Part shown: positions 15,657 to 62,939 of the stretch, piece after piece
How the letters are laid out: each line of letters starts with the position of its first letter
Position numbering within the stretch: the first letter of the stretch is position 1
Assembly: GCA_037445205.1 (NCBI GenBank)
Contig: JBBIKX010000001.1
Span: forward strand, 8,767-72,766
Length of the DNA: 64,000 nucleotides
Direction of reading: 5' to 3'
Source of the DNA: Candidatus Wildermuthbacteria bacterium
GTDB taxonomy: Bacteria; Patescibacteriota; Minisyncoccia; Minisyncoccales; PEYH01
Notes under the pieces: generated by a model
The model's input: the letters and a program-made list of their open reading frames with translations, nothing else
Told to the model about the DNA's origin: nothing
The model's database searches: none
Translations under genes and position numbers: made by a program

Positions 15657-16405
15657 GAGAAATTCCCGTTAAAACCAAAGAAGAAATAGAAATTATGGCC
15701 AGGGCCGGAAAAATCCTGGCTTTAATTTTAGATTCTTTAAAAAAAGAGATTCGAGCCGGCATAAAAACAAAAGATTTAGACTTAAAGGCCCGTCAATTAA
15801 TTAATTTTTACAAAGCGAAGCCAGCTTTTCTGGGATACGATAATTTTCCGGCTGTTTTATGCGTTTCCGTGAACGACATAATCGTCCACGGAGTGCCCTC
15901 TGATCATCAATTAAAAACAGGGGATATTATAAGCCTGGATCTTGGAATAAAATATGGCGGTTTTTATGTTGATATGGCGGTTACGATGCCGGTTGGAAAA
16001 GTTGATTCCGAGGCCTTAAGATTGATAAAAACCACAAAAAAAGCGCTCAAAAGAGCAATCAAAAAAGTCAGGCCCGGGAACACTTTTGGCGATGTCAGCA
16101 ACACTATTCAAAGATATATTGAGAAGCGGGGATTTTTTGTGATAAAAGATCTGTGCGGGCATGGCATCGGGAAAAAGCTTCACGAACCGCCGGAAATTTT
16201 AAATTATGGCAAAAGAAAAACAGGTCCTTTGTTGCGCGAAGGAATGGTTTTTTGTATAGAGCCAATGGCTTCAATCAGCGCTGAAAAAACAAAAAAATCC
16301 GATGATATCTGCGGATACAAAACGATTGATGGATCTCTGTCCGCCCATTTTGAACATACAGTGGCAGTGACAAAAAATGGGGCAAGGATTCTCACTAAAA
16401 TTTGA
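15653..16405 (+). CDS. map: Methionine aminopeptidase type I
   Basis: 250 aa with HGVP, GHGIG and FCIEP motifs; follows adk. Confidence 0.94.
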   Translation: MREIPVKTKEEIEIMARAGKILALILDSLKKEIRAGIKTKDLDLKARQLINFYKAKPAFLGYDNFPAVLCVSVNDIIVHGVPSDHQLKTGDIISLDLGIKYGGFYVDMAVTMPVGKVDSEALRLIKTTKKALKRAIKKVRPGNTFGDVSNTIQRYIEKRGFFVIKDLCGHGIGKKLHEPPEILNYGKRKTGPLLREGMVFCIEPMASISAEKTKKSDDICGYKTIDGSLSAHFEHTVAVTKNGARILTKI

Positions 16406-16430
16406 CGATTGGATCATATTATATTACTAT
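16402..16430 (+). promoter_or_regulatory. Candidate promoter of cassette A
   Basis: TTGACG(16402-16407, overlapping the map stop), 17-nt spacer, TACTAT(16425-16430). The predicted +1 falls at TCCC (16437). Confidence 0.4.
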
Positions 16431-16461
16431 AAAGAATCCCAAAAAAGATAAGGAGGTAGTG

Positions 16462-16839
16462 ATGAGAAGGATAACGCTTTTAGTAGGACTAGTTCCGCTT
16501 TCGCTCTGCACGGTTTTGGCGAGTCATTTCCTTGAGCTGCGCGGTTTCCATTACGAGCAAGCCGCTGTCTTATTTCTTCCTTTCTTAATATGGCTGACCT
16601 TATTGCGGCTTGTGGAAGGGTCAAGGGCTTGGATAGCTTGGATCGGATTTGGAACCGCCAGCGCATTGGGCGGTTTCGTTGTTTTTTCGGTGGTTCTGCA
16701 TCATCTTGCAGAGTGGAAAATAGGCCTTTGTCTCATCATGTTAGTTGCCTACTGTTTTGCCTGTGGGTTCGTTGGCCTGCTTGGTTACGATATCTGGAAG
16801 CTACAGCGCCACAATCGCGACAAGAAGAAAAAATCGTAA
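16462..16839 (+). CDS. Small integral membrane protein, about 4 TM helices, 125 aa, no recognised family
   Basis: AAGGAGGT at 16450-16457 lies 4 nt before the ATG at 16462. The ORF-track start at 16402 is an upstream in-frame extension. Sequence is hydrophobic (LLVGLVPLSLCTVLA..., GGFVVFSVVLHHL...) with GC-rich codons. Confidence 0.7.
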   Translation: MRRITLLVGLVPLSLCTVLASHFLELRGFHYEQAAVLFLPFLIWLTLLRLVEGSRAWIAWIGFGTASALGGFVVFSVVLHHLAEWKIGLCLIMLVAYCFACGFVGLLGYDIWKLQRHNRDKKKKS

Positions 16840-16882
16840 CAAAGCAGAGCCGGGCAGATGGGGAAATTGAGGTTGGGATGTC

Positions 16883-16917
16883 GGGGGCATAGCTAGGCCC
16901 CCTTTTTCTTTTTTTGA
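16883..16917 (+). terminator. Rho-independent terminator of cassette A
   Basis: GGGGGC(16883-16888) pairs with GCCCCC(16897-16902), followed by TTTTTCTTTTTTT. Confidence 0.7.
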
Positions 16918-16961
16918 AAAAGATGATAGAATAAAAAAGATAAAGAATTAATTTAAAAAAA

Positions 16962-17696
16962 ATGAAACTATCAATAATTATTCCCGCGTACAACGAAGAA
17001 AAAAGACTGCCCAAAACGCTTTTATCGATAGATAAGCATTTGAAAGGACAATCTTATGAATATGAGATTATTGTTGTAAGCGATGGTTCAAAAGACGACA
17101 CCGCAAAGATGGCTAATGATTTAAAGCCCAATGTTTCAGGCCTGAAAGTGATTGACAACAAGGAAAATCACGGCAAGGGATATGTCGTGAGGCAGGGAAT
17201 GCTTGAGGCAAGAGGAGATTATCGCATTTTCAGCGATGCTGATAATTCTACCACCATTGATCAGGTTGAAAGAATGTGGCCTTGGTTTGAAAAAGGATAC
17301 GACATCGTCATAGGATCAAGAGATGTTGAGGGTTCTGTTTTAAATCCTCCCCAGCCCTGGCTCAGAAAAGTTATCTTTGGAGGAGGGTTCAAGCTGGTCA
17401 GAAAATTTATAATCGGCCTTTGGAATATAAATGATACCCAGTGCGGCTTTAAATGCTTTACAAAAAAAGCCGCGGAAGACATTTTCTCTTCTTCAAAAAT
17501 TGACGGCTTTGCGTTTGATGTGGAAATACTGGTTTTGGCGAAGAGAATGAAGCATAAAATCAAAGAAATACCAATTACCTGGATAAATGACGTTGAGTCA
17601 AAAGTGAAATTAAAACATGTTTTCAAAATGTTTTTGGAAATGCTTAAATTGAGAAAGGATTTAGTTTTTGGAAAATATGGAAAAAGAAGAATCTAA
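16962..17696 (+). CDS. Family 2 glycosyltransferase (polyprenol-phosphate sugar transferase-like)
   Basis: Contains SIIIPAYNEE, VVSDGSKDDT and DADNS motifs. Confidence 0.85.
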   Translation: MKLSIIIPAYNEEKRLPKTLLSIDKHLKGQSYEYEIIVVSDGSKDDTAKMANDLKPNVSGLKVIDNKENHGKGYVVRQGMLEARGDYRIFSDADNSTTIDQVERMWPWFEKGYDIVIGSRDVEGSVLNPPQPWLRKVIFGGGFKLVRKFIIGLWNINDTQCGFKCFTKKAAEDIFSSSKIDGFAFDVEILVLAKRMKHKIKEIPITWINDVESKVKLKHVFKMFLEMLKLRKDLVFGKYGKRRI

Positions 17697-18726
17697 TCCA
17701 TTTCCGTCACAGCTGCGCTATGATTTGGTTTCAAAAGACTGGGTAATTATCGCCACGGGCCGGGCAAAAAAACCCCAGCTTTTTAAGCAGGCAAGAAAAC
17801 CCCAACAAGCAGTCAGGAGAAAAGATTGCCCATTTTGCAAAACAGAAACGCAATTGTTGCCCACCCTTGTTTTTTCCAATGGAAAAAGACAAGACCTGAA
17901 AAAAAACAATGGCAAAATTCCAAAAAATTGGACAACCGTCGTTATTCCCAACAAATACCCGGCCCTTTTACCCCACCCCGATCTTGGTAAAAAAATGGAA
18001 GGCGGGCTTTATCAAACAATGAACGCGGTCGGTTTTCACGAGGTTGTGGTTACCAGAAATCATCAAAAAACAATGGCAAAGTTTTCTTTAAAGGAAGCAA
18101 AAGAACTTATGGATGTTTATCAGGCAAGATATCTTGATTTAATGAAGAAAAAATTCGTAAATTATATTTCCATATTTCATAACCATGGCCAGGCGGCCGG
18201 CGCCTCCATAGAACATCCTCACTCTCAAATTATTACAACGCCCCTGATCGATTCGGATTTAAACAAAGCGCTTATCAACGGCCATAGATATTTTAAGAAA
18301 TTCAAAGAATGCATCTATTGCAGGATGAATAGATGGGAAATAAGAGCGAAAAAAAGAATTATTTTTGAAAATAAAAATTTTATTGCCGTTTGCCCTTTTG
18401 CCTCTAAAGCCGCTTTTCAGGTCATTATATCGCCCAAAAAACACCTTTCTTATTTTGAGCGAATAACAGAAAAAGAAAAAATTGATTTGGCAGATGCTTT
18501 TAGAACGGCTTGCGCAAAGCTTGAAAAAGGCCTAAATAGCCCCGCTTATAATTTTTATCTTCACACCGCCCCTTGCGACAGAAAAAAATATCCCTTTTAT
18601 CATTGGCACTGGACTATTATTCCCAAGACATCGACTTGGGCCGGTTTTGAAATCGGCACAAGAATTGAAATTTCCACCATTGAGCCCGAAAAAGCAGCGC
18701 AGTATTTAAGAGAACAAAGGACTTAA
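17668..18726 (+). CDS. galT: Galactose-1-phosphate uridylyltransferase (HIT superfamily)
   Basis: CPFC zinc motif and HPHSQ active-site motif. Confidence 0.85.
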   Translation: MENMEKEESNPFPSQLRYDLVSKDWVIIATGRAKKPQLFKQARKPQQAVRRKDCPFCKTETQLLPTLVFSNGKRQDLKKNNGKIPKNWTTVVIPNKYPALLPHPDLGKKMEGGLYQTMNAVGFHEVVVTRNHQKTMAKFSLKEAKELMDVYQARYLDLMKKKFVNYISIFHNHGQAAGASIEHPHSQIITTPLIDSDLNKALINGHRYFKKFKECIYCRMNRWEIRAKKRIIFENKNFIAVCPFASKAAFQVIISPKKHLSYFERITEKEKIDLADAFRTACAKLEKGLNSPAYNFYLHTAPCDRKKYPFYHWHWTIIPKTSTWAGFEIGTRIEISTIEPEKAAQYLREQRT

Positions 18727-18840
18727 GTTTTTTGTAATGGGGAAAAATATATCTGGAAAGCATAGAGGGGGTTGGCACGAGATTTACGCTTGTTTTTCCG
18801 TTTGCAAGACAGAGCTACTTAAAATCAGCTCAAAAGTCTT

Positions 18841-19587
18841 ATGAATAAAACAATAATTATAGCAAACTGGAAATGCAATCCGAATTCTCTAAAAGAGGCA
18901 AAAAATATTTTTGGAAAAATCAAAAAATCCCTTAGCCGTTTTAAAAAGATAGAAATAGTGGTTTGCGCGCCATTTGTCTATCTTTTTTCTTTAAAAAATA
19001 TCGCGGGAGGGAATATTCTTCTGGGCGCCCAAGATGTTTTTTGGGAAGAGGGGGGAGCGTTTACAAGCCAAATTTCTTCTTTAATGCTTAAAGACGCCGG
19101 ATGCAAATACGTGATAATTGGCCATAGCGAAAGAAGGAGATTCGGAGAGAGCGATGTAACGATAAATAAAAAGATTAAGAAGGCGATTTCTTTTGGGTTA
19201 AATGTTATTTTTTGTGTTGGGGAAACAAAGGAGGAAAGAGAAAAAGGAAGGACGTTTGAAGCGGTGTCAGGGCAGTTAAAAATTGGGTTGGGCGGTGTAT
19301 CAAAAAACTTGACGAAAAATATCATTATCGCCTATGAGCCGGTTTGGGCGATAAATCCGGGAAAACCCTGTTTATATGACGACGCCATGACAATGAATAT
19401 TTTTATTAAAAAAAATCTTGTTAAAATTTTTGGAAAGAATTTTTCCCAGAAAATAAGAATAATTTACGGAGGGAGCGTTGATTCCCAAAACGCAAAAGAT
19501 TATATAGAAAAAACGCTTATGAAAGGATTATTGGTTGGATCCGCTTCTTTAACAGAAGATTTTATAAAGATAGCAAAAAAAATATAA
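18841..19587 (+). CDS. tpiA: Triosephosphate isomerase
   Basis: Contains ANWKCN, IIGHSERR, AYEPVWAI and YGGSV. Confidence 0.94.
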   Translation: MNKTIIIANWKCNPNSLKEAKNIFGKIKKSLSRFKKIEIVVCAPFVYLFSLKNIAGGNILLGAQDVFWEEGGAFTSQISSLMLKDAGCKYVIIGHSERRRFGESDVTINKKIKKAISFGLNVIFCVGETKEEREKGRTFEAVSGQLKIGLGGVSKNLTKNIIIAYEPVWAINPGKPCLYDDAMTMNIFIKKNLVKIFGKNFSQKIRIIYGGSVDSQNAKDYIEKTLMKGLLVGSASLTEDFIKIAKKI

Positions 19588-19635
19588 TTTCTTGTTTTCG
19601 CCTGACCTTTTTGATAGTATATACAAAGAAATTTT

Positions 19636-20145
19636 ATGAAAGACATAACTTTCGGAAGGTTTTTTAATCCCACAAAGGGCTATATTGATTTTTCAGAAGT
19701 TTTAAATGAAATCTTTTTTTATTTTCAGGAGAGGCCGGAAAAATTTTATGAAGTTGTTTTGGGCTGCGATTCGTCTTCCCAAAAAGAGCCATTTTTTCCT
19801 GTGGCCATTGTTGTTTTAAGAAGAGGGGAGGGCGGAAGGTTTTTTTTGAAAAAAATCAAATATCGCCATAGAAAATTTTATAATCATCAACAAAGGATTT
19901 TAGAAGAAGTTTTTTTGTCCTGTCAGATGGCGCTTATCATAAAAGATAGGATTAACAATGAAATCAGGGGGAAAATACCAAATTTAAAATTGGAATTTAA
20001 ATATATCCATGCCGATGTGGGAACAAATGGATTGACCCGCGATATGATAAAGGAAGTGGTTGGATTGATCAAGGGGAACGGATTCGAGGCAAAAATCAAG
20101 CCCGAATCTTTTGCGGCTACGATTGTAGCCGATCGCTACTCCTAA
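19636..20145 (+). CDS. RNase H-like YkuK/DUF458-type protein (tentative)
   Basis: 169 aa. The GCDSS and HADVGTNG pattern resembles the YkuK family by eye only. Confidence 0.5.
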   Translation: MKDITFGRFFNPTKGYIDFSEVLNEIFFYFQERPEKFYEVVLGCDSSSQKEPFFPVAIVVLRRGEGGRFFLKKIKYRHRKFYNHQQRILEEVFLSCQMALIIKDRINNEIRGKIPNLKLEFKYIHADVGTNGLTRDMIKEVVGLIKGNGFEAKIKPESFAATIVADRYS

Positions 20146-20164
20146 AAAATCAATAAAAAAGCCA

Positions 20165-21970
20165 ATGAACAGCGCAGGCAAGATTCGTCAAAAATTTCTT
20201 AAGTTTTTTGAAAAAAGGGGACACAAAATCGTGCCATCATCTTCTCTTTTGCCCGCTGACCCTTCCGTTCTTTTTACCACCGCCGGCATGCAGCAATTTA
20301 AGCCCTACTTTTTGGGGGAAGAATCGCCCCACGGGGACAAGACGACAAGCTGCCAGAAATGCTTGCGCACTTCAGATATAGAGAGCGTGGGCGATGAAAG
20401 CCATCTGACATTTTTTGAAATGCTTGGAAATTTCAGCTTCGGAACTTATTTTAAAAAAGAGACTATAAAGATGGCGATTGATTTTTTAGTTGAAGAATGT
20501 AAATTGCCGATTAAAAATATTTGGGTAACAGTTTTTGGAGGAGAGGCTGGTATGCCGCCGGATGAAGAATCTCCGAAAATCTGGCAGGAGATTGGGATTC
20601 CTCCAGAAAGAATTTATTCTTTTGGAAAAAAAGATAATTTTTGGGGGCCTACGGGAAAAGAAGGTCCCTGCGGCCCGACTACTGAAATCCACTATGATTT
20701 GAGAGGCGGTTTTTGTTCCAAAAAAGAAAAATGCATGCCCGGCTGTAAATGCCAGAGATTTGTAGAGGTTTGGAATTTGGTGTTTAACCAGCACTATCAA
20801 AATGAGGACGGAAGCCTTGAGGCGTTAAGAAAAATTGGAGTTGATACGGGTATGGGACTGGAAAGATTAACGATGATCCTCCAAAACAAAAAATCAGTTT
20901 TTGAATCAGATCTTTTTTGGCCGATAATGAAAGTGATTGAGTCCAATTGCAAAAAAAAATATGAAACAGCGCCAAGACATTTCAGAATTATTGGCGATCA
21001 CCTGAAGTCATCTTGTTTTCTGATATCAGAGGGGATAACGCCCTCTAAAATTGAAAGAGGATATGTTTTAAGGCGTCTTTTGAGAAGATCTATGCGTTAT
21101 GGTAAAATGATAGAGTTAAAAGAAGAAGGATGGAGGCAAATTCTTGGCCAGATAATTGATCTTTATAAAAAAGATTATCCCGATATTTTTTACAATCAAA
21201 AGAAAATTTTTTCCATAATATCCGAGGAAAAAAGCAGATTTGACAAAACAATTCAGGAGGGAATCAGGGATTTTGAGAGATTAATCGCCGATTCTAATGG
21301 AAAAATAACGGGCAAAGAGCTCTTTGATCTTTCTGCAACGCATGGCCTTCCCTTGGATTTGATTCAGGATATTGCTTTTGAGCGGGGCATTCAATTTGAT
21401 AAAGACGGCTTTAACAGGGCGTTAAAAAAACATCAGGAGGTTTCGCGCGCCGGAGCAAAGAAAAAATTTGGAGGTCTCGGGGTGGACAGTTTGGAAAATG
21501 AACAGGAAATCAAAGAAGCAAAAAAACTTCACACGGCAACCCATATTCTTCACGCCGCGCTAAGAGAAATTTTGGGCAAAGAGGTAAAACAGATGGGTTC
21601 TGACATTACTCCTCAGAGGTTAAGATTTGATTTCTCTTTTAAAAGAAAGCTTGAAAAAGACGAGCTTGAGAAGATAGAAAGCTTTGTAAATAAGAAAATT
21701 AAGGCAAATCTTTCGGTCTCTAAAAAAGCAATGCCCTTAAAAAAAGCCCTTAGCGTCGGAGCGCTCGCTTTTTTTAAAGAAAGGTATCCGCAAACCGTAA
21801 ATGTTTATTTGATAAGAGATCCAGAAGGCAAAGCGGGATTTCTTTCAAGGGAAATTTGCGCAGGTCCTCATGTAAACGGAACTTTAGAGATAGGAGGGTT
21901 TAAAATCCTCAAAGAAGAAGCAGTGGGTTTAGGAATCAGAAGAATCAGGGCAGTAGTCGGAAAAAAATAA
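20165..21970 (+). CDS. alaS: Alanine--tRNA ligase (short form, 601 aa)
   Basis: Contains FLKFFEKRGH, FTTAGM and the editing motif HTATHILHAALR. Confidence 0.93.
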   Translation: MNSAGKIRQKFLKFFEKRGHKIVPSSSLLPADPSVLFTTAGMQQFKPYFLGEESPHGDKTTSCQKCLRTSDIESVGDESHLTFFEMLGNFSFGTYFKKETIKMAIDFLVEECKLPIKNIWVTVFGGEAGMPPDEESPKIWQEIGIPPERIYSFGKKDNFWGPTGKEGPCGPTTEIHYDLRGGFCSKKEKCMPGCKCQRFVEVWNLVFNQHYQNEDGSLEALRKIGVDTGMGLERLTMILQNKKSVFESDLFWPIMKVIESNCKKKYETAPRHFRIIGDHLKSSCFLISEGITPSKIERGYVLRRLLRRSMRYGKMIELKEEGWRQILGQIIDLYKKDYPDIFYNQKKIFSIISEEKSRFDKTIQEGIRDFERLIADSNGKITGKELFDLSATHGLPLDLIQDIAFERGIQFDKDGFNRALKKHQEVSRAGAKKKFGGLGVDSLENEQEIKEAKKLHTATHILHAALREILGKEVKQMGSDITPQRLRFDFSFKRKLEKDELEKIESFVNKKIKANLSVSKKAMPLKKALSVGALAFFKERYPQTVNVYLIRDPEGKAGFLSREICAGPHVNGTLEIGGFKILKEEAVGLGIRRIRAVVGKK

Positions 21971-21979
21971 TTTTAAATT

Positions 21980-23215
21980 ATGGCCAATATAAAAATTTAT
22001 GATATACGTCCGCCAAGGAAAGTAAAAAAAATAAGCCCGGATAAGGAAGTTTTAAAACAGCCAAAAAAATCCGACGCGAAAGCAAATATCAAAAAAATAT
22101 CAATAATATTTATTTTTTTTATCATTCTTTCCTTGGTTGTCATACAATTTTTTAACGCCTCAAAAGCGACTATATCAATATGGCCAAAAACTCAGGAAAA
22201 TGAATATCAGGTTTTTATAACAGCCGTTCCTCAGCAAAAAGAATTTGATGTTCTTGCCCAAACAATTCCCGCAACTGTTTTAGAAAAAGAAGAAGTGTTA
22301 ATAAAGGAATTTCAGTCGCCCAAGATTAATATTGGAGAAAAAGCGAAGGGCACGATCCGCGTCCACAGCAAACATCATTTGCCGACAACCCTTATCGCCA
22401 ATACAAGATTTTTGTCTTCCACCGAACCGACCCGTCAATTCGTCGCTTTAAAGCGATTTACGGTTCCGGCGGGAGGTTACGTGGATGTGGATGTTGTCGC
22501 CAGCGAGGCGGGAAGCGATTATAACATAGGACCCTCCACTTTTTCCATTCCGGGATTAAGAAATTTTTCTCCTCCGGAACTGTATTATAATCTTTACGGA
22601 AAATCCTCGGAAGAAATGACAGGAGGCGGCAATAAGGAAATTTTTAAAATTGACAAAAAGGCTGTTGAAAAAGCAAAAGAGGTTGCAGAAAAAGAAGCCC
22701 GGGAAATGATACAAAAAGAATTAGAAAAGCTTGCCGGTCAAGACAAATTATTGCAAAAAAGCATTTATAAAGAAATATTAGAATCATCTGCGCCATCCGC
22801 CCAAGAGCAGGAACAAAAAGAATTTTTCACATACAAAGTAAAGATTAGGGGCAAGGCTTTGATTGTTAAAAATTCCCAACTTTCGGATTTCATTATAAAA
22901 TATCTTTCGCTTAAAATGCCTCGTGATAAAGATGTCAACAAAGAAAAAATTGCCATAAAAAATTTTTCTGAAAATATTGATAAGGAAAATAACATCACCA
23001 TTGATTTGACCATTGCGTCTTATATCTTTTCTAAAATAGAAGATATGGCTATAAAAGAGATGAGTCGCAACCAGAGAGTGTCTAACATCAAGCGATACTT
23101 AACAGAAATTTATCCCCAGATGCAAAAAGAGCCCAAAATCAAAACCTCTCCATTTTTTCTAAAAAAACTTCCCGAGAGCTCCGAAAGCGTGGAAATTCAA
23201 ATTAAATTCGAATGA
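21980..23215 (+). CDS. Hypothetical membrane-anchored protein (one N-terminal TM helix)
   Basis: 411-aa ORF with backbone composition. TM segment is ISIIFIFFIILSLVVIQFF. Confidence 0.6.
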   Translation: MANIKIYDIRPPRKVKKISPDKEVLKQPKKSDAKANIKKISIIFIFFIILSLVVIQFFNASKATISIWPKTQENEYQVFITAVPQQKEFDVLAQTIPATVLEKEEVLIKEFQSPKINIGEKAKGTIRVHSKHHLPTTLIANTRFLSSTEPTRQFVALKRFTVPAGGYVDVDVVASEAGSDYNIGPSTFSIPGLRNFSPPELYYNLYGKSSEEMTGGGNKEIFKIDKKAVEKAKEVAEKEAREMIQKELEKLAGQDKLLQKSIYKEILESSAPSAQEQEQKEFFTYKVKIRGKALIVKNSQLSDFIIKYLSLKMPRDKDVNKEKIAIKNFSENIDKENNITIDLTIASYIFSKIEDMAIKEMSRNQRVSNIKRYLTEIYPQMQKEPKIKTSPFFLKKLPESSESVEIQIKFE

Positions 23216-23218
23216 TGC

Positions 23219-23247
23219 TTGACCTTTTTGTGCAATATTGCTATACT
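23219..23247 (+). promoter_or_regulatory. Candidate sigma70 promoter for infA-rpmJ-rpsM
   Basis: TTGACC(23219-23224), 17-nt spacer, TATACT(23242-23247). Confidence 0.5.
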
Positions 23248-23292
23248 TTTTTACATTGTCCGGATTTAAAAAGACAATTTAGGAAGTAGCAA

Positions 23293-23511
23293 ATGTCTAA
23301 AAACAAAGCCCACAAGGTAGACGGAATGGTAATTGAATCTCTGCCCAATGCAACTTTTAGGGTCAAGCTTGATGATGGAAGGGAAATTTTGGCGCATCTT
23401 GCGGGCAAATTAAGAATATATAGAATAAGGGTTCTGCCCGGAGACAGGGTTGTGGTAGAACTACCATCTTTACAAGACCTAAGAGGCAGAATCACATACA
23501 GAAAAAAATAA
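23293..23511 (+). CDS. infA: Translation initiation factor IF-1
   Basis: 72 aa, contains GMVIESLPNATFRVKLDDGREILAHLAGKLR. Confidence 0.96.
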   Translation: MSKNKAHKVDGMVIESLPNATFRVKLDDGREILAHLAGKLRIYRIRVLPGDRVVVELPSLQDLRGRITYRKK

Positions 23512-42348: not shown

Positions 42349-42371
42349 ACACAATCCTCTTGGCACTTGTT

Positions 42372-50429: not shown

Positions 50430-50434
50430 TTTTT

Positions 50435-55135: not shown

Positions 55136-55333
55136 ATGCCAGCAGTAAATCTTGTTAACGTGGCGAGGTCATTGCCGGACGAAGAGGCGGAGAGGCTTTT
55201 GCTCATCGAGCAAAGCAATCCTGATTGCCTCAGGGCGCTTTTTGCGGTCGTTCTGAGCGCCGGAACGCTGGAAAAAGCTGTTCCTCTGATCCAACGAGTT
55301 CTTGCTGGCGCACCCTTGTTTCCGGGCGGATGA
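55136..55333 (+). CDS. 65-aa helical protein, unknown family (a 92-aa form from the GTG at 55055 is possible)
   Basis: AAAGGAG(55124-55130) lies 5 nt before the ATG at 55136. The same frame is open from 55055, but that GTG sits inside an SD (AAGGAGGTG 55049-55057). Confidence 0.5.
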   Translation: MPAVNLVNVARSLPDEEAERLLLIEQSNPDCLRALFAVVLSAGTLEKAVPLIQRVLAGAPLFPGG

Positions 55334-56341: not shown

Positions 56342-56363
56342 AATCCCAAGAATATTATATCAT
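56335..56363 (+). promoter_or_regulatory. Candidate promoter of cassette D
   Basis: TTGACA(56335-56340, overlapping the miaA start codon on the other strand), 17-nt spacer, TATCAT(56358-56363). The predicted +1 falls at TCCC (56370). Confidence 0.4.
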
Positions 56364-56389
56364 TATAAATCCCAAAAAGGAGGTGGTTA

Positions 56390-56683
56390 ATGTCGTATTA
56401 TTTAGCAATAATGTTTATGTTGCTAAGCGCAGGCTTTGCAAGTGCGGGGTTTAGGGTGATCCGTTATGCCCTTCGAGGAAAGCTGACAGGCACTATGCTT
56501 GATAGAGGCATGATACTCGGTACTGTCATCGTGCTTGTTGGAGTGGGGCTCGCCACGATTCCCATCATCTTCCAGAGCGGGATAAGATGGTGGTGTCTTG
56601 CGCTGGCGCTTGTGGAGGCAGTGGTCTGTATTGGGCTCTGGATGCTGCATGTCTTCTCGTCTGCGTCAATGGATTCACCCTAA
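56390..56683 (+). CDS. 97-aa integral membrane protein, about 3 TM helices, unknown family
   Basis: GGAGGTG(56379-56385) lies 4 nt before the ATG. Hydrophobic segments: YYLAIMFMLLSAGFASAGF, ILGTVIVLVGVGLATIPIIF, WWCLALALVEAVVCIGLWML. Confidence 0.7.
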   Translation: MSYYLAIMFMLLSAGFASAGFRVIRYALRGKLTGTMLDRGMILGTVIVLVGVGLATIPIIFQSGIRWWCLALALVEAVVCIGLWMLHVFSSASMDSP

Positions 56684-56695
56684 GGCGTGGATTGC

Positions 56696-56728
56696 GAGGG
56701 CTCTCTTGTGCGGGGGCCCTCCTTTTTT
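56696..56728 (+). terminator. Terminator of cassette D, abutting the miaB stop codon
   Basis: GAGGGCTCTC(56696-56705) pairs with GGGGGCCCTC(56712-56721) using G-U pairs, followed by CTTTTTT. Confidence 0.6.
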
Positions 56729-58061
56729 ATTCCATCAATTTTCCTCTCAGTCCGTATGGACCAATGTTTATTATTTTGGCTTTAACAAAATTTCCTAAAA
56801 TATTTTTATCTGATTTCAATCTAATGGTTTGATAATGCCTTGTTTTTCCGACATAAAAATCATTTTTTTTGGTGAGTATCAAAACTTCCGCGGTTTTTTT
56901 AAAAAACTTCTTGTTAAAATTTAAAATGGTTTTTTTTAATACTTTGAATAATTCTTTTTCTCTTGTTTTTTTCTTAAAGTTGGGGACATCGTCGTTTAAA
57001 TGAAGGGCGGCTGTTTGAGGCCTTTTAGAATAAGCCGCAATATATCCAAACGCAAATCCGATTTTTTCAAAATTATTTTTTGTATTTTCAAATTGTTTTT
57101 TGGTCTCGCCGGGAAATCCTACAATTACATCAGAAGATACAGCCACTTCTTTTTCGATGCCGCATCTGTATTTTTTAAAATTATTTCTTATTTTTTTAAT
57201 AAGCGCTTTATATTGAGATACAGTGTAGGGCCTATTCATTTTTTTAAGGATTTCATTGTCTCCTGATTGAATTGGAAGATTAATATAGGGCGTTACTTTA
57301 TGGCATTTTGCCATTGTTTTAATTAGTTCGTCGCTTAAATCTTTTGGATGAGAAGAGGTAAATCTTATCCAAAAATTCCCCTCAATATCATTTATCATTT
57401 TAAGAAGCGTTGGAAAATTTATTTCTTTTTCTTTTTTCACTTTAAGGTTTGTGTTTTGGATTTTACCATTATAGGAATTGACATTCTGTCCCAACAGCCA
57501 TACTTCTTTTGCTCCGCTTAAAACGGCCTTTTTTATTTCACAAATAATATCTTGGGCCGGCCTTGAGATTTCTTTTCCTCTTACATAAGGTACGACGCAA
57601 TAACTGCAGAAATTATTGCACCCGGTCATTATCGGAATATAGGCAACAACAGGGGATTGATATTTAGGCATTAATTCAAAATAGTGTTTTTTTTTGAATT
57701 CAACCGACCTAATTTTAAAACCAAGCTTTTTTAATATCTCGGGCAATTTGGGAAGCTCATTTATGTCAAAGATTTCATCGCAGAATTTATTAAGTTCTTT
57801 TTTGTCTTTTTCTAAGATACATCCCGTTAAAATAATTTTATATTTTATATTTTTATTTTCATATTTGAGCCTTATCTTTTTAATTCGAGCGCTTGCTCGA
57901 TCTATCGCCGACTGTCTGACTGAACAGATATTAAACACTATCAAATCCACCCCATCGCATTTATTGGCATGATTAAATCCTGATTTTTCCAAAACGCCTG
58001 CGATTCTTTCGGAGTCAGATTTATTCATTTGGCACCCAAAAGTGATAATATGATATTTCAT
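56727..58061 (-). CDS. miaB: MiaB/RimO-family radical-SAM methylthiotransferase
   Basis: Contains ITFGCQMNKSDSE, GCNNFCSYCVVP and a C-terminal TRAM-like domain. Confidence 0.88.
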   Translation of the reverse strand: MKYHIITFGCQMNKSDSERIAGVLEKSGFNHANKCDGVDLIVFNICSVRQSAIDRASARIKKIRLKYENKNIKYKIILTGCILEKDKKELNKFCDEIFDINELPKLPEILKKLGFKIRSVEFKKKHYFELMPKYQSPVVAYIPIMTGCNNFCSYCVVPYVRGKEISRPAQDIICEIKKAVLSGAKEVWLLGQNVNSYNGKIQNTNLKVKKEKEINFPTLLKMINDIEGNFWIRFTSSHPKDLSDELIKTMAKCHKVTPYINLPIQSGDNEILKKMNRPYTVSQYKALIKKIRNNFKKYRCGIEKEVAVSSDVIVGFPGETKKQFENTKNNFEKIGFAFGYIAAYSKRPQTAALHLNDDVPNFKKKTREKELFKVLKKTILNFNKKFFKKTAEVLILTKKNDFYVGKTRHYQTIRLKSDKNILGNFVKAKIINIGPYGLRGKLME

Positions 58062-58092
58062 ATCTTTTCTTTAAGATAAACGCTAAAGAATA

Positions 58093-58536
58093 TTATTCTC
58101 CGATTATTTGAATCTGGATATTTCTTTTTTTAGGATAAGCGAGTTCTATGAAAAGAATGCTCTGCCATAAGCCGAGCTGCAGCTTTCCTTCAATTATATT
58201 TAGGCAGACGCTTGTTGGTATATGCAATGCTCTGCAATGAGAGTGGGCGTTCGGTTTCTCATCCGGACACATATTTACGGTTCTTATTTCAAAATTATTG
58301 TGATTATACGCTTTATTTTTCGGAGAACAATGCTCTAAGTGTTCTTTAATGTCCTGTAAAAGCAACGGTTCGTTTTCATTTACAAAAACAGAGGCGGTTG
58401 TGTGAAGAGACTGAATATTAATAATTCCGTTTTTTACCGCAGTTTTTTTGGTTATTTCTTTAATCCTTTCCGTGATATCGATAATTTGAAGTTCTTCGAC
58501 GGTATCAATAGAGATAATCGAATTTTTGATAATCAT
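58093..58536 (-). CDS. YjbQ/UPF0047 family protein (secondary thiamine-phosphate synthase-like)
   Basis: Contains QSLHTTASVFVNENE, NAHSHCRA and GLWQSILFIE. Confidence 0.75.
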   Translation of the reverse strand: MIIKNSIISIDTVEELQIIDITERIKEITKKTAVKNGIINIQSLHTTASVFVNENEPLLLQDIKEHLEHCSPKNKAYNHNNFEIRTVNMCPDEKPNAHSHCRALHIPTSVCLNIIEGKLQLGLWQSILFIELAYPKKRNIQIQIIGE

Positions 58537-60287
58537 TTTTTTTCTTTGATTTCTTTTTTTATTTTTTCAATGAAATCACGCAATGAAATAACACCTAAAT
58601 TTCCTTTTTCTCTGCTTCTCATGCTTATTTTTTGTTCTTTTTCTTCTTTATCCCCGGCAACAACAACGTAAGGAATTTTTTGAATTTCAGCTTCCCTTAT
58701 TTTTTTAGAAAGCGTTTCATTATCGTCTTTAATTTCCACTCTGATACTTTCTTTTTCTAATGCGTTTTTTATTCCTTGGGAATAAATCAAATGCCTTTGA
58801 GCAATCGGCATTATTGAAACCTGGACCGGAGAAAGCCAAAGGGGCAAAGCGCCTTTATAATGCTCTAATAAAAACGCAATGGTTCTTTCAATCGCGCCGA
58901 TTGAAGAACGATGAATCACAATCGGTTCTTTTTTTGAGCCGTCTTGGTCGATATAAGAAAGATTGAATCTTTTTGAGGCTAAAAAATCGTATTGCACGGT
59001 AAAAGCGGTTTCTTCTTTGCCGGCGAAATTTTTTATTTGAATATCTATTTTGGGCCCATAGAAAGCGGCTTCACCCTTTGCCTCAAAAAAAGGAGATTTT
59101 CTTTCGATTAAAACATCTCGCAAAATATTTTCCGCGAGAAGCCAGGATTTTTTATCCTGATAATATTTTTTAGCATTTTTTAGGTCGCCCAAAGACAATC
59201 TGTATCTGTAATTTTTATTTTTTTCCAAGCCCAGGGCGAAAGATACGCATTCTATCAAATCCAGAACTTTTTTAATTTCTTCTTTTGCCATTTCTTTTTG
59301 GCAGATGATATGGGAATCCGCCAAACAAAAAGATCGCACCCTCATCAGACCGGTTAATTCCCCGGATTTTTCGTATCTATACTGCTTTGCCAATTCGGCC
59401 AAGCGGAAAGGAAGATCTCTGTAAGATCTTGGAGCGTCAAGGTAAAGTTGATAATGATGCGGGCAGGTCATTGGTCTTAGAATCAGCTTTTCTTCGTCAA
59501 CCTGCATCACTGGATACATCGCATCTTTATAATAAGGGTAATGTCCGGAAACTTCATATAGAGCAACGCGAGCCAGATCGGGTGTGTAAATATGCATATA
59601 GCCCCTTTTAATTTCTTCTTCAACTATAAACCTTTCCAGTTCTCTTCTGATTATTGATCCCTTGGGCGTGAAAAGGGGTAATCCTTTGCCTACCAATTCG
59701 GAGAATGTGAACAAATTAAGCTTTTTTCCAATTATCCTATGGTCTCTTTTTTCCGCTTCTTTAATCAGTTCAAAGTGATTATCCAGTTCTTTTTTATTTT
59801 TAAAAGCAACCCCATAAATTCTTGTCATCATTTTATTCTTTTCGCTGCCCCTCCAATAAGCGCCCGCAATCTTAGTTAATTTAAAACAATCTTCTGGAAT
59901 TTCTTTTGTTGATTTTATATGCGGACCTCCGCACAAATCAATAAAATTTCCTGATTCATATATCGTAACCATTTTTTCTTTAAGCTCTTTGATCAGTTCA
60001 ATTTTATACGGTTGATTTTTAAAGATCTTTTTTGCTTCAATTTTAGAAACAAATCTTTTTTTAAATTTGATATTTTGTCGAATTAATTCTTTCATTTTTG
60101 TCTCAATTCTTGATAAATCATCAACGCTAAATCCGCTCCCATCTGAAGTCGTAGCGGGCAAGTCAAAATCATAATAAAATCCATTTTCAATAACCGGACC
60201 TATGCCAAACTTTGCTTTAGGATAAAGTTCTTTAACCGCATGCGCCATTATATGCGCCAGCGAATGTCTGATGGTGTCTAATTTCAT
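58533..60287 (-). CDS. thrS: Threonine--tRNA ligase (lacks the N-terminal TGS domain)
   Basis: Contains RHSLAHIMAHAV, class II motifs and HRSSIGAIER. Confidence 0.94.
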   Translation of the reverse strand: MKLDTIRHSLAHIMAHAVKELYPKAKFGIGPVIENGFYYDFDLPATTSDGSGFSVDDLSRIETKMKELIRQNIKFKKRFVSKIEAKKIFKNQPYKIELIKELKEKMVTIYESGNFIDLCGGPHIKSTKEIPEDCFKLTKIAGAYWRGSEKNKMMTRIYGVAFKNKKELDNHFELIKEAEKRDHRIIGKKLNLFTFSELVGKGLPLFTPKGSIIRRELERFIVEEEIKRGYMHIYTPDLARVALYEVSGHYPYYKDAMYPVMQVDEEKLILRPMTCPHHYQLYLDAPRSYRDLPFRLAELAKQYRYEKSGELTGLMRVRSFCLADSHIICQKEMAKEEIKKVLDLIECVSFALGLEKNKNYRYRLSLGDLKNAKKYYQDKKSWLLAENILRDVLIERKSPFFEAKGEAAFYGPKIDIQIKNFAGKEETAFTVQYDFLASKRFNLSYIDQDGSKKEPIVIHRSSIGAIERTIAFLLEHYKGALPLWLSPVQVSIMPIAQRHLIYSQGIKNALEKESIRVEIKDDNETLSKKIREAEIQKIPYVVVAGDKEEKEQKISMRSREKGNLGVISLRDFIEKIKKEIKEKK

Positions 60288-60329: not shown

Positions 60330-61916
60330 TTAGGAAAGAGGGATATTGATGTAAAACAAAGAACCCTTCTCTGTTTTTTTGGGGGTTGCCCAGACAATTC
60401 CCCTATGAAGTTCGGTAAACTTTCTTGCGATATAAAGACCCAGCCCCGCCCCTCCTGTCCAGCTTTCTTCGCCCGCTTTTCCCCGCATAAAGCTTTGGAA
60501 GAGATTTGCAGCTTCTTCTTCGCTCATTCCAAGCCCCGTGTCAGAAATTTTTATAAGCGCCCTGTTTTCTTTAACAGTGCTGATAATTTCTATCCCGCCC
60601 TTCTCTGTGTATTTGATTGCGTTATCAATAATATTTATAAAAACCTGCCTTATTTTTTCTTTGTCTAACGACATTAAAGGAAGAGGAATATTCTTTTTAT
60701 ATCTTAAATACAGATCTTTCTGATGGGCGGCAATTTTTAATTGTTCCACCACTTCTCCAATTAAATCCTCAAGCGAGGTTTTTTCAATGTTCATTTCCAT
60801 TTTTCCCGCTTCAATCCGGGAGATGTCTAAAAGATCCTGCACAAGCTTATTAAGCTGGGAAACCACCTGAAAAGAATTTTTTATTGGTTTTTTGATTCCC
60901 CGCGAAACTTCTCCGTAGTTTTCTTCAAGAACCATTGAAAGGTAGCCGCGAACGATGGTTAAAGGGGTTCTCAATTGGTGCGAGGCAATAGAAATAAATT
61001 CTGTTTTCGCCTTGTCCAGCTCCGATAATTTTTCATAAGCAATTTTCAGTTTTTTCGCCATTTCCTCCATTTCTTTCCTCTGCTTTATTTCCCTGAGAAC
61101 GCTTCTTATAAGCAAAACTCCAAAAATCAAAAAAACAAAAAACACAAATCCCTTCCACATATACTGCCAGAGGTGAACCGCGTCAAAAATGTTAAAAAAC
61201 AAAACGATGCTTATAATGCCTACAATCAGGGCGGCAATTACAACCTTTATGTCAAAAAGTCGGTGCTTGACGATGGCATAGGAGAGTATTAGCGGGTAAA
61301 ACGCAACAAAAAAATTTCCATAGGGCGGAAAAGAAATTCCATACCACAATGGAAAATTTGTTGCGCCCCCTCCAAACCCAATTATTATTGCCAGAAAAAT
61401 ATATTTTATCTGGTTGCGGATATCGTTAGATGATTTTTTATAGACTTTTAAAAGTTCGTAGCAGGTGTAAGCAATTATCGCGCCGTATGCCCCAAAAAGA
61501 TAAATGGTGTAGACAGGTCCGGCTATCGGCCACCAGGGAAAATTAAGCTGGGGTTTTACATTTTTTACAAAAAGAGGGCTGAAGCTGAATAGAAATAAAA
61601 TTGCTGTAAGCAGGTATCCAGAAATAATGACCGCCCTTCTTTTTTTATGTAAATCATAAATTGTAAAAATCCAATGAAGGAATGTTATCGGTATGAAAGT
61701 TGATCCAATACTTAAGCATTTCGCCCAAAATAACGCAGTTTCTTTATTAAGACTTAGCTGCCAGAAACCGTAACTGACTCCCCAAAAAACAAGCGCGACA
61801 TTCATTAGCAAAAAAGTTTTATGGGAAAGCTTTTTTGGATTTTTATAGAATACAAAAAAACCGAAAATTATAGCCGATAGTCCGTTGATAAAACCAGATA
61901 AAGCGAATATATTCAT
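60330..61916 (-). CDS. Sensor histidine kinase with a multi-TM N-terminal domain (no adjacent response regulator)
   Basis: HisKA motif SIASHQLRTPLT and HATPase motifs (DNAIKYT, DTGLGM, GGAGLGL). The start is taken as the ATG at 61916 rather than the TTG at 61928. Confidence 0.88.
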   Translation of the reverse strand: MNIFALSGFINGLSAIIFGFFVFYKNPKKLSHKTFLLMNVALVFWGVSYGFWQLSLNKETALFWAKCLSIGSTFIPITFLHWIFTIYDLHKKRRAVIISGYLLTAILFLFSFSPLFVKNVKPQLNFPWWPIAGPVYTIYLFGAYGAIIAYTCYELLKVYKKSSNDIRNQIKYIFLAIIIGFGGGATNFPLWYGISFPPYGNFFVAFYPLILSYAIVKHRLFDIKVVIAALIVGIISIVLFFNIFDAVHLWQYMWKGFVFFVFLIFGVLLIRSVLREIKQRKEMEEMAKKLKIAYEKLSELDKAKTEFISIASHQLRTPLTIVRGYLSMVLEENYGEVSRGIKKPIKNSFQVVSQLNKLVQDLLDISRIEAGKMEMNIEKTSLEDLIGEVVEQLKIAAHQKDLYLRYKKNIPLPLMSLDKEKIRQVFINIIDNAIKYTEKGGIEIISTVKENRALIKISDTGLGMSEEEAANLFQSFMRGKAGEESWTGGAGLGLYIARKFTELHRGIVWATPKKTEKGSLFYINIPLS

Positions 61917-61930
61917 ATACAAAAACAAAT

Positions 61931-61971
61931 CCCCCGGAGGTGCGTTAGTTCATTTTAACACCTTTTGGGGG
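61931..61971 (-). terminator. Imperfect hairpin plus T-run after the methyltransferase, ending about 12 nt before the kinase ATG
   Basis: The minus strand reads CCCCCAAAAGGTG...CACCTCCGGGGG followed by ATTTGTTTTTGT. The stem has an internal loop. Confidence 0.4.
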
Positions 61972-61983
61972 ATAGAGACAACG

Positions 61984-62859
61984 TTATGCTGGTTTATAGA
62001 CACGGTTTACCAGCACTTGGCGGGCAAACGTCACCCTCCATGTCGGGCCTACGAATCCGACTTCCCGGAGCAGTTGTTCCCATTGCGGAATTGCGAGGAA
62101 GGTGTATGTTCCTTCTTTTCCCTTTCTTTGTATTTCAAGGGCGTGACGAAGTATGCTTGTGCCCTGAAGAATTCGGCTAAAATCCCGATTTCTTATGTAG
62201 GGCAGAGGATTGAGCATGTCAGGAAGAGAAGCGACAAACACCCATTGGAAGTGAACGTTTTGTCTGGGAGTAGACCAGACGATATGTCCTCCGGGCTTGA
62301 GCACCCTATGCATCTCTCTGAAAACTTCCCTCATGGCCCTTATGCCTTTTTCGCTTCGAAAGTCAGTTGCATAGGGGATAACTAAATTTGCGATAATTCC
62401 ATCAAAGTGGTTATCGTCGAAGGGAAGTTCTTCGCCAAGATGAGCGAAAACAAGATGCATGGGCAACGTGGGGTGAAGAGATTGCGTTTTCCGCGCCGGA
62501 TCAAGAACTATATCCAGACCAACTACCAATTTGATAGTTCTGCCGGATTTGTTCCATGCCAAGAGAGCCATCTTGGCGGGTCCGCAGCCTACATCCAGCC
62601 AAACTTCGTTAGCTTTGGGCTGGATTAATCCGGCGACTGTCGTTGTAAGGTTGTGGTAGGGTCTTGCCTTTTCCAGGTTTTTGTAAATCCTTGCGTAATC
62701 CCTCCAAAACGCCAACTCTTGTCCCCAAGAGCGGATCCTTCCTCTTGTGAAGGGCGAAAGCCCGTTCTCATTTGCTTCCAGCCACTCTTCTATGCTCTCC
62801 GTGCTTAATCCTTCTCCAAAGCACGGCCCAAGGATCTCTGATATGCTTTTGGTTTTCAT
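61984..62859 (-). CDS. Class I SAM-dependent methyltransferase
   Basis: Motif I LDVGCGPAK, and post-I/II elements (VGLDI, VLKPGGHIVW). AAGGAGGT lies 5 nt upstream of the ATG. Confidence 0.8.
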   Translation of the reverse strand: MKTKSISEILGPCFGEGLSTESIEEWLEANENGLSPFTRGRIRSWGQELAFWRDYARIYKNLEKARPYHNLTTTVAGLIQPKANEVWLDVGCGPAKMALLAWNKSGRTIKLVVGLDIVLDPARKTQSLHPTLPMHLVFAHLGEELPFDDNHFDGIIANLVIPYATDFRSEKGIRAMREVFREMHRVLKPGGHIVWSTPRQNVHFQWVFVASLPDMLNPLPYIRNRDFSRILQGTSILRHALEIQRKGKEGTYTFLAIPQWEQLLREVGFVGPTWRVTFARQVLVNRVYKPA

Positions 62860-62906
62860 TCCTTACCTCCTTGCTTGCCCGATAAATCAAAGGGCTGTGT
62901 TTATTT

Positions 62907-62935
62907 TTTATAGCCGTATAGCAGGAATTTGTCAA
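62907..62935 (-). promoter_or_regulatory. Near-consensus promoter of cassette E
   Basis: Minus strand: TTGACA(62935-62930), 17-nt spacer, TATAAA(62912-62907), starting 5 nt after the dnaE stop. Confidence 0.55.
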
Positions 62936-62939
62936 TTTT

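Follow-up and report, generated by a model that had tools for sequence, protein, structure and literature searches.

A stretch of 64,000 nucleotides (nt) from a Candidatus Wildermuthbacteria bacterium (contig JBBIKX010000001.1 of assembly GCA_037445205.1, positions 8,767-72,766 of the forward strand; hereafter the window) contains five G+C-rich loci with eight open reading frames (ORFs), each led by a Shine-Dalgarno (SD) sequence. The loci are referred to as units A, B (comprising B1, B2-B3 and B4), C, D and E. They are resident accessory transcription units, native to the genome and long established in it. The units differ in age, occupy exact spacers between genes and travel with the chromosome; they have been shuffled by homologous recombination and their SD sequences are kept in orthologues. 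The explanation that we favour, with a probability of roughly 0.55, is that they are moron-like islets which were gained at different times and then inherited, with swapping of alleles, and which make up an SD-dependent class in an SD-independent genome. The organism belongs to an uncultivated lineage of the Patescibacteria of the Parcubacteria/Paceibacteria type. Its threonyl-tRNA synthetase found its top match among GTDB species representatives in Ca. Zambryskibacteria (56%), and the matches of MiaA carry the names Pacebacteria and Minisyncoccales.

The G+C content of the window is 0.387. Profiles of 500 nt and 150 nt single out the five loci, which are the sole stretches of several hundred bases at 0.48-0.51 G+C outside conserved housekeeping genes. 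Because the latter locally reach 0.45-0.48, raw G+C is not decisive; the G+C content at third codon positions (GC3) of each gene is. It was 0.50-0.68 in the eight cassette ORFs (z = 2.9-7.3), as compared with a mean of 0.376 (standard deviation 0.042, maximum 0.473) in 72 backbone genes of the window, and the two sets separate fully (Mann-Whitney U = 576 = 8x72, p = 2e-6). The codon usage of the cassettes departs from that of the ribosomal and tuf genes as well as from that of the other backbone genes, chiefly in the two-fold codons. The fractions in cassettes and backbone are 0.64 and 0.25-0.28 for TAC, 0.61 and 0.30 for AAC, 0.46 and 0.18 for ATC, and 0.53 and 0.19-0.27 for AAG. The cassette proteins are also rich in arginine and poor in lysine (4.5% versus 11-13.5% elsewhere). 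An SD core (GGAGG, AGGAG or GAGGT at -18 to -4) precedes all eight cassette ORFs but only 2 of the 72 backbone genes (Fisher p = 1.6e-9), and the mean A+T content upstream of the start is 0.50 for the former and 0.81 for the latter. Both contrasts, in composition and in SD, had been claimed in a preliminary description of this DNA and are borne out. A blind scan for the combination of SD, ORF and excess G+C recovered the ORFs of that description at their own starts; it revealed no further gene start in the window, the few extra matches being internal or overlapping frames.

The contrast of the units with their surroundings is real in all four respects: composition, SD, promoter-like sites and terminators. 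The strongest sites in the window with a hairpin followed by a T-run, at 16883, 42112, 55342 and 56696, are each the end of a cassette; strong terminators also exist in the backbone (27413, 27808 and 40504). Sigma70-like promoters had likewise been ascribed to the units. Matches to 9-11 of 12 consensus positions were found at 41592 (TTGACC-17-TATAAT), 56335 (TTGACA-17-TATCAT), 55004 (TTGATT-17-TATAAT) and 16402 (TTGACG-17-TACTAT). Such matches weigh little alone, since they are only modestly commoner than in shuffled AT-rich sequence (56 versus 47±6.6, and 67 versus 47.6±7.5, a slight to moderate excess). At units A, C and D the -35 box falls within one end of the adjacent gene or shares bases with it (map, gatB and miaA, respectively).

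Sharp steps in composition might suggest an assembly chimera, contamination or engineered DNA, but they are the only point in favour of such an origin. A 12.8-kb contig of the Logan assembly SRR11582151 carries the lipid kinase gene of cassette B and the PheS gene, spans both junctions of this cassette and differs from the window by one mismatch. On a second Logan contig the methyltransferase gene of unit E lies between dnaE and a histidine kinase gene. A sibling metagenome-assembled genome (MAG), L085 (GCA_964383555.1), which stems from another run and is about 97% identical to the window, carries D (93% nucleotide identity), E (98%) and a divergent allele of C, and three other samples likewise have homologous cassettes at the same sites. 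Similarity searches of the window sequence against plasmids and phages (the latter by blastn) gave no matches, nor was there any similarity to vectors. Exogenous, engineered or chimeric DNA, which the preliminary description had entertained, is thus refuted for B, C, D and E by independent assemblies and by relatives, and we consider its probability negligible.

The age of the units can be judged from relatives, namely L083 and L084 (from other samples) for cassette B, and L087 and L088 for the sites of C, D and E. Cassette B is present in all three lineages compared, that is in the window, L083 and L084. In both relatives the kinase gene is syntenic, with the tRNA-Asp gene upstream and pheS downstream, its product is 54-56% identical to that of the window, and its SD is kept. 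In the same loci PheS and PheT are 61% and 45% identical, and backbone proteins generally 45-93%. Peptides similar to that of B4, starting with MHKW and led by an SD, occur in L083 and L084. The segment corresponding to B2-B3 contains in L083 a single ORF of 115 or 126 amino acids (aa) with weak similarity to B3 (IEP..GQ.I.F); in L084 it is degraded. Between L083 and L084 the number of synonymous substitutions per site (dS) of the kinase gene is 0.74 and the ratio of non-synonymous to synonymous substitutions (dN/dS) is 0.18, and the dS of pheS, pheT and gyrB is 0.57-0.70. The agreement of its dS with that of the flanks and the low dN/dS indicate co-inheritance with the chromosome under purifying selection. 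Cassette B has been inherited vertically and is older than the split from two diverged relatives. The kinase gene stands out in G+C in the relatives too (0.45-0.50 versus 0.35-0.38), and its GC3 excess falls across the lineages from +0.17 to about +0.09, which neutral amelioration fits.

The kinase (DAGK) is a lipid kinase of the DgkB/YegS type, encoded at 40590-41588 on the plus strand in unit B1 (40534-41588), behind a promoter-like TTGAAA-16-TAGATT (40534-40561) and the SD AAGGAGGTGA (40576-40585). In Pfam it matched DAGK_cat (PF00781, 5e-25, 87.9 bits with a cut-off of 23.6) and YegS_C (PF19279, 8e-11, 42.4 bits with a cut-off of 27). Its closest solved structure is DgkB (2qv7, E = 4e-19), and its identity to lipid kinases outside the clade is 28-36%. 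A putative terminator hairpin with a T-run (41523-41557) lies inside the kinase ORF. In other words, the ORF of the window reads through its own hairpin and ends 30 nt past it; in L083 and L084 the orthologous ORFs terminate upstream of theirs. The bicistronic unit B2-B3 (41592-42152, plus strand) has its promoter-like sequence, with a TG element, at 41592-41620, followed by the ORFs of B2 (41648-41815, 55 aa, SD TAAGGAGGTGAT) and B3 (41838-42101, 87 aa, SD AAGGAGGGAGG) and by a hairpin with a T-run (42112-42142). Unit B4 (42153-42407, plus strand) encodes a 47-aa peptide with a single transmembrane (TM) segment (42205-42348; GTG start, SD GGGAGGTGG) and ends with a hairpin at 42372-42399.

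Unit E (61917-62939, minus strand) encodes a class I S-adenosylmethionine (SAM) methyltransferase of 291 aa (61984-62859), preceded by the SD AAGGAGGTA (62864-62872) and by TTGACA (62930-62935) and TATAAA (62907-62912) with a spacer of 17 nt. The protein scored 49.9, 39.9 and 42 bits with the Pfam families Methyltransf_11, 25 and 31 (cut-offs 21.2, 27 and 27). Its family comprises about 75 clusters at 42-59% identity, all of them metagenomic, and a profile scan of JGI metagenomes yielded 54 loci. In about 40 of these, nearly all with enough downstream DNA, the methyltransferase gene is followed by a gene homologous to that downstream of E in the window (60330-61916, minus strand), which according to Pfam encodes a HisKA_7TM histidine kinase and is AT-rich and without an SD. 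The gap between the two genes is 56-141 nt (about 22 nt in two loci). Pairwise identities of methyltransferases and kinases correlate (r = 0.80), and their nearest neighbours mostly agree. Methyltransferase and 7TM histidine kinase thus form a conserved two-gene module. The preliminary description had counted the kinase gene as backbone; as the conserved downstream partner of the methyltransferase it belongs to the E module.

Most of the 52 loci compared, whose genomes have a G+C content of 0.28-0.40, carry an SD resembling AAAGGAGGTGA before the methyltransferase gene (GGAGG about 5-10 nt before the start); the adjacent kinase gene never has one in the methyltransferase loci examined. Over the full matches, GC3 was higher in the methyltransferase than in the kinase gene at 26 of 30 distinct loci, by +0.09 on average and by up to +0.34; restricting the kinase to its first 225 codons gave 27 of 29 loci. 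In many loci methyltransferase GC3 is more than 2-3 standard deviations above that of other genes. Because the SD and the G+C shift are conserved across the methyltransferase loci, they are long-standing traits of this gene and not scars of recent transfer in the lineage of the window. The preliminary description had named conserved synteny of the ORFs in related lineages as a finding that would refute it; B and E both proved to be syntenically conserved.

The spacer between the two genes of the module has a recurrent arrangement: a -35 sequence TTGTYT, a hairpin with an extended -10 (TGTTAAAAT) in its loop, a T-run and the ATG of the kinase gene. Folds of single sequences gave the hairpin in 22 of 22 loci, and in at least 19 it encloses the -10 (window 61917-61983; L089, L094-L141). 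The stems vary between loci, yet remain complementary. A count of covariation in the hairpin on a MAFFT alignment was discarded; the 3' arm was misaligned and 4 pairs were counted. The spacer is predicted to be a terminator of the methyltransferase gene in which the promoter of the kinase gene is nested. Other SD-led genes near methyltransferase homologues in other genomes (L089 2873-4051; L092 2566-4180 and 5301-5471) encode small Cys-rich peptides, accompanied by a radical SAM/SPASM enzyme, and a 43-aa peptide that follows an ATP-grasp enzyme. They look like peptide-modification clusters.

Comparison with relatives revealed empty sites for C, D and E. Unit C is missing from L088, where the gap between gatB and miaA is 16 nt; the -35 is present there, and a -10-like TATTAT takes the place of the TATAAT of the window. 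Unit D is missing from L087, where the stop codon of miaB is separated from the start codon of miaA by 4 nt and TTTTTTTGACAT, including the -35 TTGACA, is already there. The methyltransferase and kinase genes are both missing from L087, in which dnaE is directly followed by thrS with TTGACA already upstream. The gain or loss of genes at intergenic spacers is therefore real for C, D and E with its kinase, all of which combine deviant composition with absence from the same position in a relative; absence was not observed for B. The empty sites also show that the units are not fully self-contained, as had been supposed, because promoter boxes of C, D and E are present without the cassettes. The inserted matter is essentially leader, SD, ORF and terminator, although the insert of D also brings the -10 and a divergent promoter-like site. 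For both C and D the boundaries of the insert match the start of the leader and the T-run of the terminator, and the inserts sit between stop and start codons with neither flanking gene damaged.

Unit C (55004-55372, plus strand) has a promoter-like TTGATT-17-TATAAT (55004-55032), the -35 of which lies within the last codons of gatB, a leader of about 95 nt (55039-55135) beginning with AATCCAGAATAAGGAGGTGGT, the SD AAAGGAG (55124-55130), an ORF of 65 aa (55136-55333) and a hairpin with a T-run (55342-55362). A first AAGGAGGT in this cassette (55049-55056) is without a usable start codon; it is AAAGGAG which serves the 65-aa ORF. L087 carries C of the window type, with 55% aa identity, a dN/dS of 0.42 and a dS of 0.72 (1.0-1.9 for the genes used for comparison). 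The cassette is thus older than the split from this diverged relative. The allele of the sibling L085 shares 25% aa identity with that of the window while the flanks are 94-97% identical; the allele was replaced in L085.

The first part of the C leader, about 55 nt (55049-55105; AAGGAGGTGGT…CAGTC.AAAGAGGGCGAGG), is conserved at the nucleotide level in L087 and even in the divergent allele of L085. It is non-coding, as the frame differs, and has no stable fold. A structured RNA or riboswitch was considered and rejected, Rfam reporting only tRNAs and folding z-scores being 0.1-0.9. An in-frame GTG further upstream (55055) was likewise discarded since it overlaps an SD-like motif and its frame is lost in the sibling allele. 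On the opposite strand miaA lacks its normal stop in the window and continues antisense through cassette C for about 65-73 codons (55169-55390, minus strand). MiaA accordingly measures 381-390 aa in the window and 369 aa in L087, as compared with 317 aa in L088, which has no C, and in L085, which has the other allele.

Unit D (56335-56728, plus strand) uses as its -35 a TTGACA (56335-56340) which the initial codons of miaA supply in reverse complement; its -10 is TATCAT. A leader motif AATCCCAAAAA (56368-56378), the SD AAGGAGGTGG (56377-56386), an ORF for a 97-aa protein with 3 TM segments (56390-56683) and a hairpin (56696-56721) follow, the inserted segment being about 56342-56721. Its 5' part contains the opposite-facing promoter-like TTAACC-17-TATAAT (56362-56390, minus strand), which would drive miaA, cut off from miaB by the insertion.

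Unit A (16402-16917, plus strand) begins with a promoter-like TTGACG-17-TACTAT (16402-16430) whose -35 overlaps the stop codon of map. The motif AATCCCAAAAA (16435-16445), the SD AAGGAGGT (16450-16457), an ORF of 125 aa with 4 TM segments (16462-16839) and a hairpin followed by a T-run (16883-16902) complete the unit. A and D were considered as possible paralogues, but the proteins show no similarity. The genes map and infA, usually neighbours, are about 7 kb apart (16405-23293), separated by cassette A, a GT2 glycosyltransferase gene, a GalT/HIT-like gene and four further genes.

The leaders of A, C and D share a motif, AATCC[CA][AG]AA, which starts at 16435, 55039 and 56368 and lies between the -10 and the SD, 4-8 nt from the former and 0-6 nt from the latter. 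There are 8 matches in the window as against 3.0 expected, and three of them fall in these short leaders. The motif recurs in C of L087, and L083 and L084 have a similar GAATCCAAG in the leader of the DAGK gene. In several JGI loci (among L096-L100, L108, L111, L125 and L129) it precedes the methyltransferase gene or a neighbouring SD-led peptide gene, and in L096-L099 it constitutes the 3' side of a small stem-loop, TTGGATT…AATCCAA. As far as can be judged from the sequences, the shared motif argues for a common regulatory design of the units.

The same features might be read as those of a new miniature mobile cassette, a promoter-poor segment of leader, SD, ORF and terminator which is inserted by a dedicated mechanism encoded elsewhere. 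A site-specific recombinase or the reverse transcription of mRNAs would be candidates, the inserts running approximately from transcription start to terminator. Besides the exact stop-to-start insertions and the boundaries of C and D, this idea draws on the sharing of the leader motif and of AGGAGGT(G/A)GT by A, C and D, and on a 14-nt direct repeat, AAAAAAGATAA(G/A)GA, which brackets the ORF and terminator of A (16441 and 16933). Several findings speak against it. The 64 kb contain neither a recombinase nor a reverse transcriptase gene, the units have no termini in common and no consistent target duplication, and apart from the repeat around A there were only A/T-rich repeats at chance level. 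Every cassette is single-copy, with one syntenic site in relatives. Four scans of viral contigs (with the methyltransferase profile, DAGK, A and D) found no relatives, and these results together with the empty phage blastn also led us to reject an origin from phages. E is part of a module the second gene of which is ordinary, and since the leader motif precedes vertically inherited methyltransferase genes elsewhere, it looks regulatory and not like the end of an element. A mobile cassette of this kind is therefore very improbable. The absence of integrase and transposase genes from the listed ORFs of the window, and of terminal inverted repeats from the units, agrees with the preliminary description, but its suggestion of a new miniature insertion cassette finds no support. 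Of its interpretation as a whole, gene gain at intergenic spacers survives; neither engineered DNA nor a mobile element of a new kind is supported.

Homologous recombination has left clear traces. A backbone tract at 57450-60000 (the 5' part of miaB, yjbQ and thrS) is 70-83% identical to the sibling, with a dS of 1.19 for thrS, and the rest is about 97% identical. The tract was imported from a diverged relative by homologous recombination, a process that is thus common here. For the methyltransferase gene a dS of 0.025 stands against 0.10-0.21. Selection on synonymous sites was rejected as the reason for the low dS of cassettes, because in other pairs the dS values of adjacent methyltransferase and kinase genes are discordant in either direction, by up to about 8-fold. 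Recombination mosaicism explains the low values better. It could then be argued that the excess in G+C and GC3 is itself a by-product of recombination hot spots, whether by GC-biased gene conversion or by repeated import of alleles from G+C-richer relatives. The recombined tracts, the replacement of the C allele between window and sibling and the discordant dS values are in keeping with this proposal, as is the spread of methyltransferase GC3 from 0.31 to 0.48 within one clade in which the kinase GC3 is 0.23-0.27. Yet the recombined 2.5-kb backbone tract is not enriched in G+C, an excess of +0.1 to +0.3 in GC3 is more than would generally be expected from GC-biased gene conversion in bacteria, and neither the SD nor the amino-acid bias is accounted for. 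We therefore regard hot spots as an improbable source of the contrast.

Fairly recent horizontal transfer is another possible explanation. The donors would be G+C-richer bacteria that use SD sequences, for example host bacteria, and the signals of the cassettes would be unameliorated and without a role in the recipient. A codon usage unlike that of highly expressed or ordinary backbone genes and the lysine-poor, arginine-rich proteins would be expected in this case. A, C and D have homologues only in close relatives, C, D and E have empty sites, and the fall of the DAGK GC3 excess is what amelioration predicts. Nevertheless, B dates back to the divergence of lineages that share 61% identity in PheS, and its dS equals that of its flanks. 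The SD and GC3 excess of the methyltransferase genes reach deep into the family, in which the co-inherited kinase is AT-rich and SD-less. C has a GC3 of 0.52 in L087 (backbone 0.25-0.29, about 0.27) in spite of a backbone dS to the window of more than 1, and the promoter boxes are mostly resident and not imported. Recent transfer is consequently an unlikely explanation.

According to the interpretation as islets of different age, a unit consists of a predicted sigma70-type promoter, supplied for the most part by intergenic or gene-end DNA already in place, a short leader (bearing the motif in A, C and D), an extended SD that matches the canonical 3' tail of 16S rRNA by complementarity, an ORF enriched in G+C and in codons ending in C or G, and a strong predicted intrinsic terminator. 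Segments from leader to terminator sit exactly in intergenic spacers, which they would have entered by horizontal transfer, with other Patescibacteria as the most plausible donors. After entry they were inherited with the chromosome, and alleles were exchanged among related lineages by homologous recombination. B arrived before the split from the two relatives and C before the split from one of them; D, and E with the kinase, are missing from at least one relative. Translation would be initiated in an SD-dependent manner in a minority of genes, the bulk being SD-independent as in Bacteroidota. The SD was probably kept by selection, as the G+C-richer and more structured start regions would need it. 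In fact a strong, well-spaced SD, confined to a minority of genes, is kept in orthologues of DAGK and B4 and in most of the 52 methyltransferase loci. Weak indications from the products, a DgkB-like soluble lipid kinase, a methyltransferase with a 7TM sensor kinase and small proteins, hint at accessory roles connected with envelope or lipids.

A bolder idea is that of a second, selectively maintained expression regime in this branch of the Parcubacteria, in which leader motif, extended SD, G+C-shifted codons and terminators mark a regulon-like accessory class that is translated differently. Translation might then occur only by ribosomes with an exposed anti-SD, or under particular conditions. 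In a weaker variant the class may gain members by the insertion of transcript-shaped DNA segments, running from start to terminator. We consider such a regime doubtful.

Several observations weigh against the islet interpretation. SD-dependent translation in the organism of the window is deduced solely from conservation of the motif. Tsurumaki et al. (PMC9297842) described a subgroup of Parcubacteria which lacks uL1 and in which the anti-SD motif is often undetected. The window likewise has no rplA (uL1) at its usual place after rplK (L11), which is followed by thyA, folA, dcd, a deaminase gene and tmk (50007-51265). In agreement with that study, the 3' end of the 16S rRNA gene of Parcubacteria bacterium GBS-2 (L008 2650-2800, minus strand; …GGATCACTCATTAAA, ending with GGATCACTCATTA) has no CCTCC anti-SD, although this organism is unrelated to the lineage of the window. 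An Rfam scan of the window itself found three tRNAs only and no rRNA. The islet interpretation does not account for the persistence of the GC3 excess: amelioration fits the methyltransferase family poorly, and the GC3 of this family and of C calls for selection, biased gene conversion or an import of alleles. In addition, several genes with an SD that adjoin the methyltransferase gene in other genomes have no raised GC3. The notion that an SD generally goes with high GC3 in these genomes was dropped, since crude gene calls over all the loci gave only a weak trend. No donor has been identified, the nearest DAGK outside the clade being 36% identical. A is a narrow orphan and may not function as a gene; among 1.84 billion representatives its protein had a single relative, of 125 aa and 83% identity, on a 2-kb NCBI contig. 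The dN/dS of D between window and L085 is 0.98; D shows no purifying selection and evolves neutrally there, so not every unit need be functional. Like A, D may not be a working gene, and some units may be decaying or non-functional. Finally, promoters and terminators are predictions.

The units invite comparison with phage morons, independent units of promoter, ORF and terminator situated between the conserved genes of a phage (Cumby et al. 2012, PMC3594210). Like morons they are small units with a predicted terminator of their own, to which promoter-like sites are added that in part pre-exist at the empty sites; they deviate in composition, often encode accessory membrane proteins and are inserted exactly between genes which are adjacent in relatives. 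Unlike morons they do not lie in a prophage but in cellular housekeeping operons (map/GT2, tRNA-Asp/pheS, gatB/miaA, miaA/miaB and dnaE/thrS). Phage genes are absent from their surroundings and homologues from the viral contigs scanned, several promoter boxes were in place beforehand, and at least two of the units are old and were passed on vertically.

Integron cassettes are similarly small, mostly promoter-less single-ORF units which use a resident promoter. The units of the window differ from them in lacking attC-like imperfect inverted repeats at their ends, in the absence of intI and attI from the window, and in being dispersed over five sites instead of arrayed, each with its own terminator and SD. 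They are also unlike insertion sequences, miniature inverted-repeat transposable elements and transposons, having neither terminal inverted repeats, target-site duplications, a transposase nor multiple copies. Lineage-specific presence and absence and deviant composition are shared with genomic islets and tRNA-linked islands, but the G+C-rich cassettes have no att-like repeats or integrase and only B adjoins a tRNA gene. With regard to the proteins, the DAGK of the window resembles the soluble lipid kinases DgkB, YegS and BmrU, as its scores above the Pfam gathering cut-offs and its closest structure indicate. E is a class I SAM methyltransferase by the same measure; its family is limited to metagenomic contigs of Patescibacteria type and paired with the 7TM kinase.

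The genomes of Bacteroidota are poor in SD-led translation and have a few conserved genes with a strong SD, such as rpsU. The window is similar in that most genes have A/T-rich leaders without an SD and a small strong-SD minority is conserved among orthologues, which points to a separate mode or control of initiation. It belongs to a different phylum, and its SD-led genes are accessory and G+C-enriched and are not ribosomal protein genes. The remaining interest lies in this clean dichotomy of SD-led and SD-less genes in a genome of the candidate phyla radiation (CPR), and in its conservation. Within one small genome about 90% of genes are SD-less and a few accessory genes have a nearly perfect extended SD; for at least two SD-led genes, the traits of SD, codons and terminator are conserved across deep divergence. 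Such genes offer a concrete handle on translation initiation in the CPR and on the SD as a mark of a separately regulated set. If the lineage were truly without an anti-SD, recognition of the conserved GGAGG would have to depend on something else than the tail of the 16S rRNA. It also follows that a sharp contrast in G+C and SD within a MAG does not, taken alone, testify to chimera, engineering or recent transfer. The methyltransferase-kinase module with its predicted promoter in the terminator loop is compact and conserved and should be useful for annotation.

Two further stretches of the window, both AT-rich, are absent from relatives. An ORF of 498 aa between gyrB and secE (47562-49058) is missing in the sibling, L083, L084, L087 and L088; this accessory gene has no SD, and its composition is like that of the backbone. 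The second stretch is situated next to cassette B. The 3' end of the tRNA-Asp gene (AATCCCCTTGGGTCCGCAA) recurs as a 19-nt repeat about 1.2 kb downstream, at about 40465-40483 (region 39176-40483). This repeat bounds the neighbouring 1.2-kb insert and not cassette B. The insert (39252-40483), which looks like an att-type duplication from an integrated element, without an integrase, is missing in L083 and L084, where the DAGK gene directly follows tRNA-Asp. It encodes a membrane protein of 298 or 355 aa (39306/39477-40373), with AGGAGG 7 nt before the ATG at 39477.

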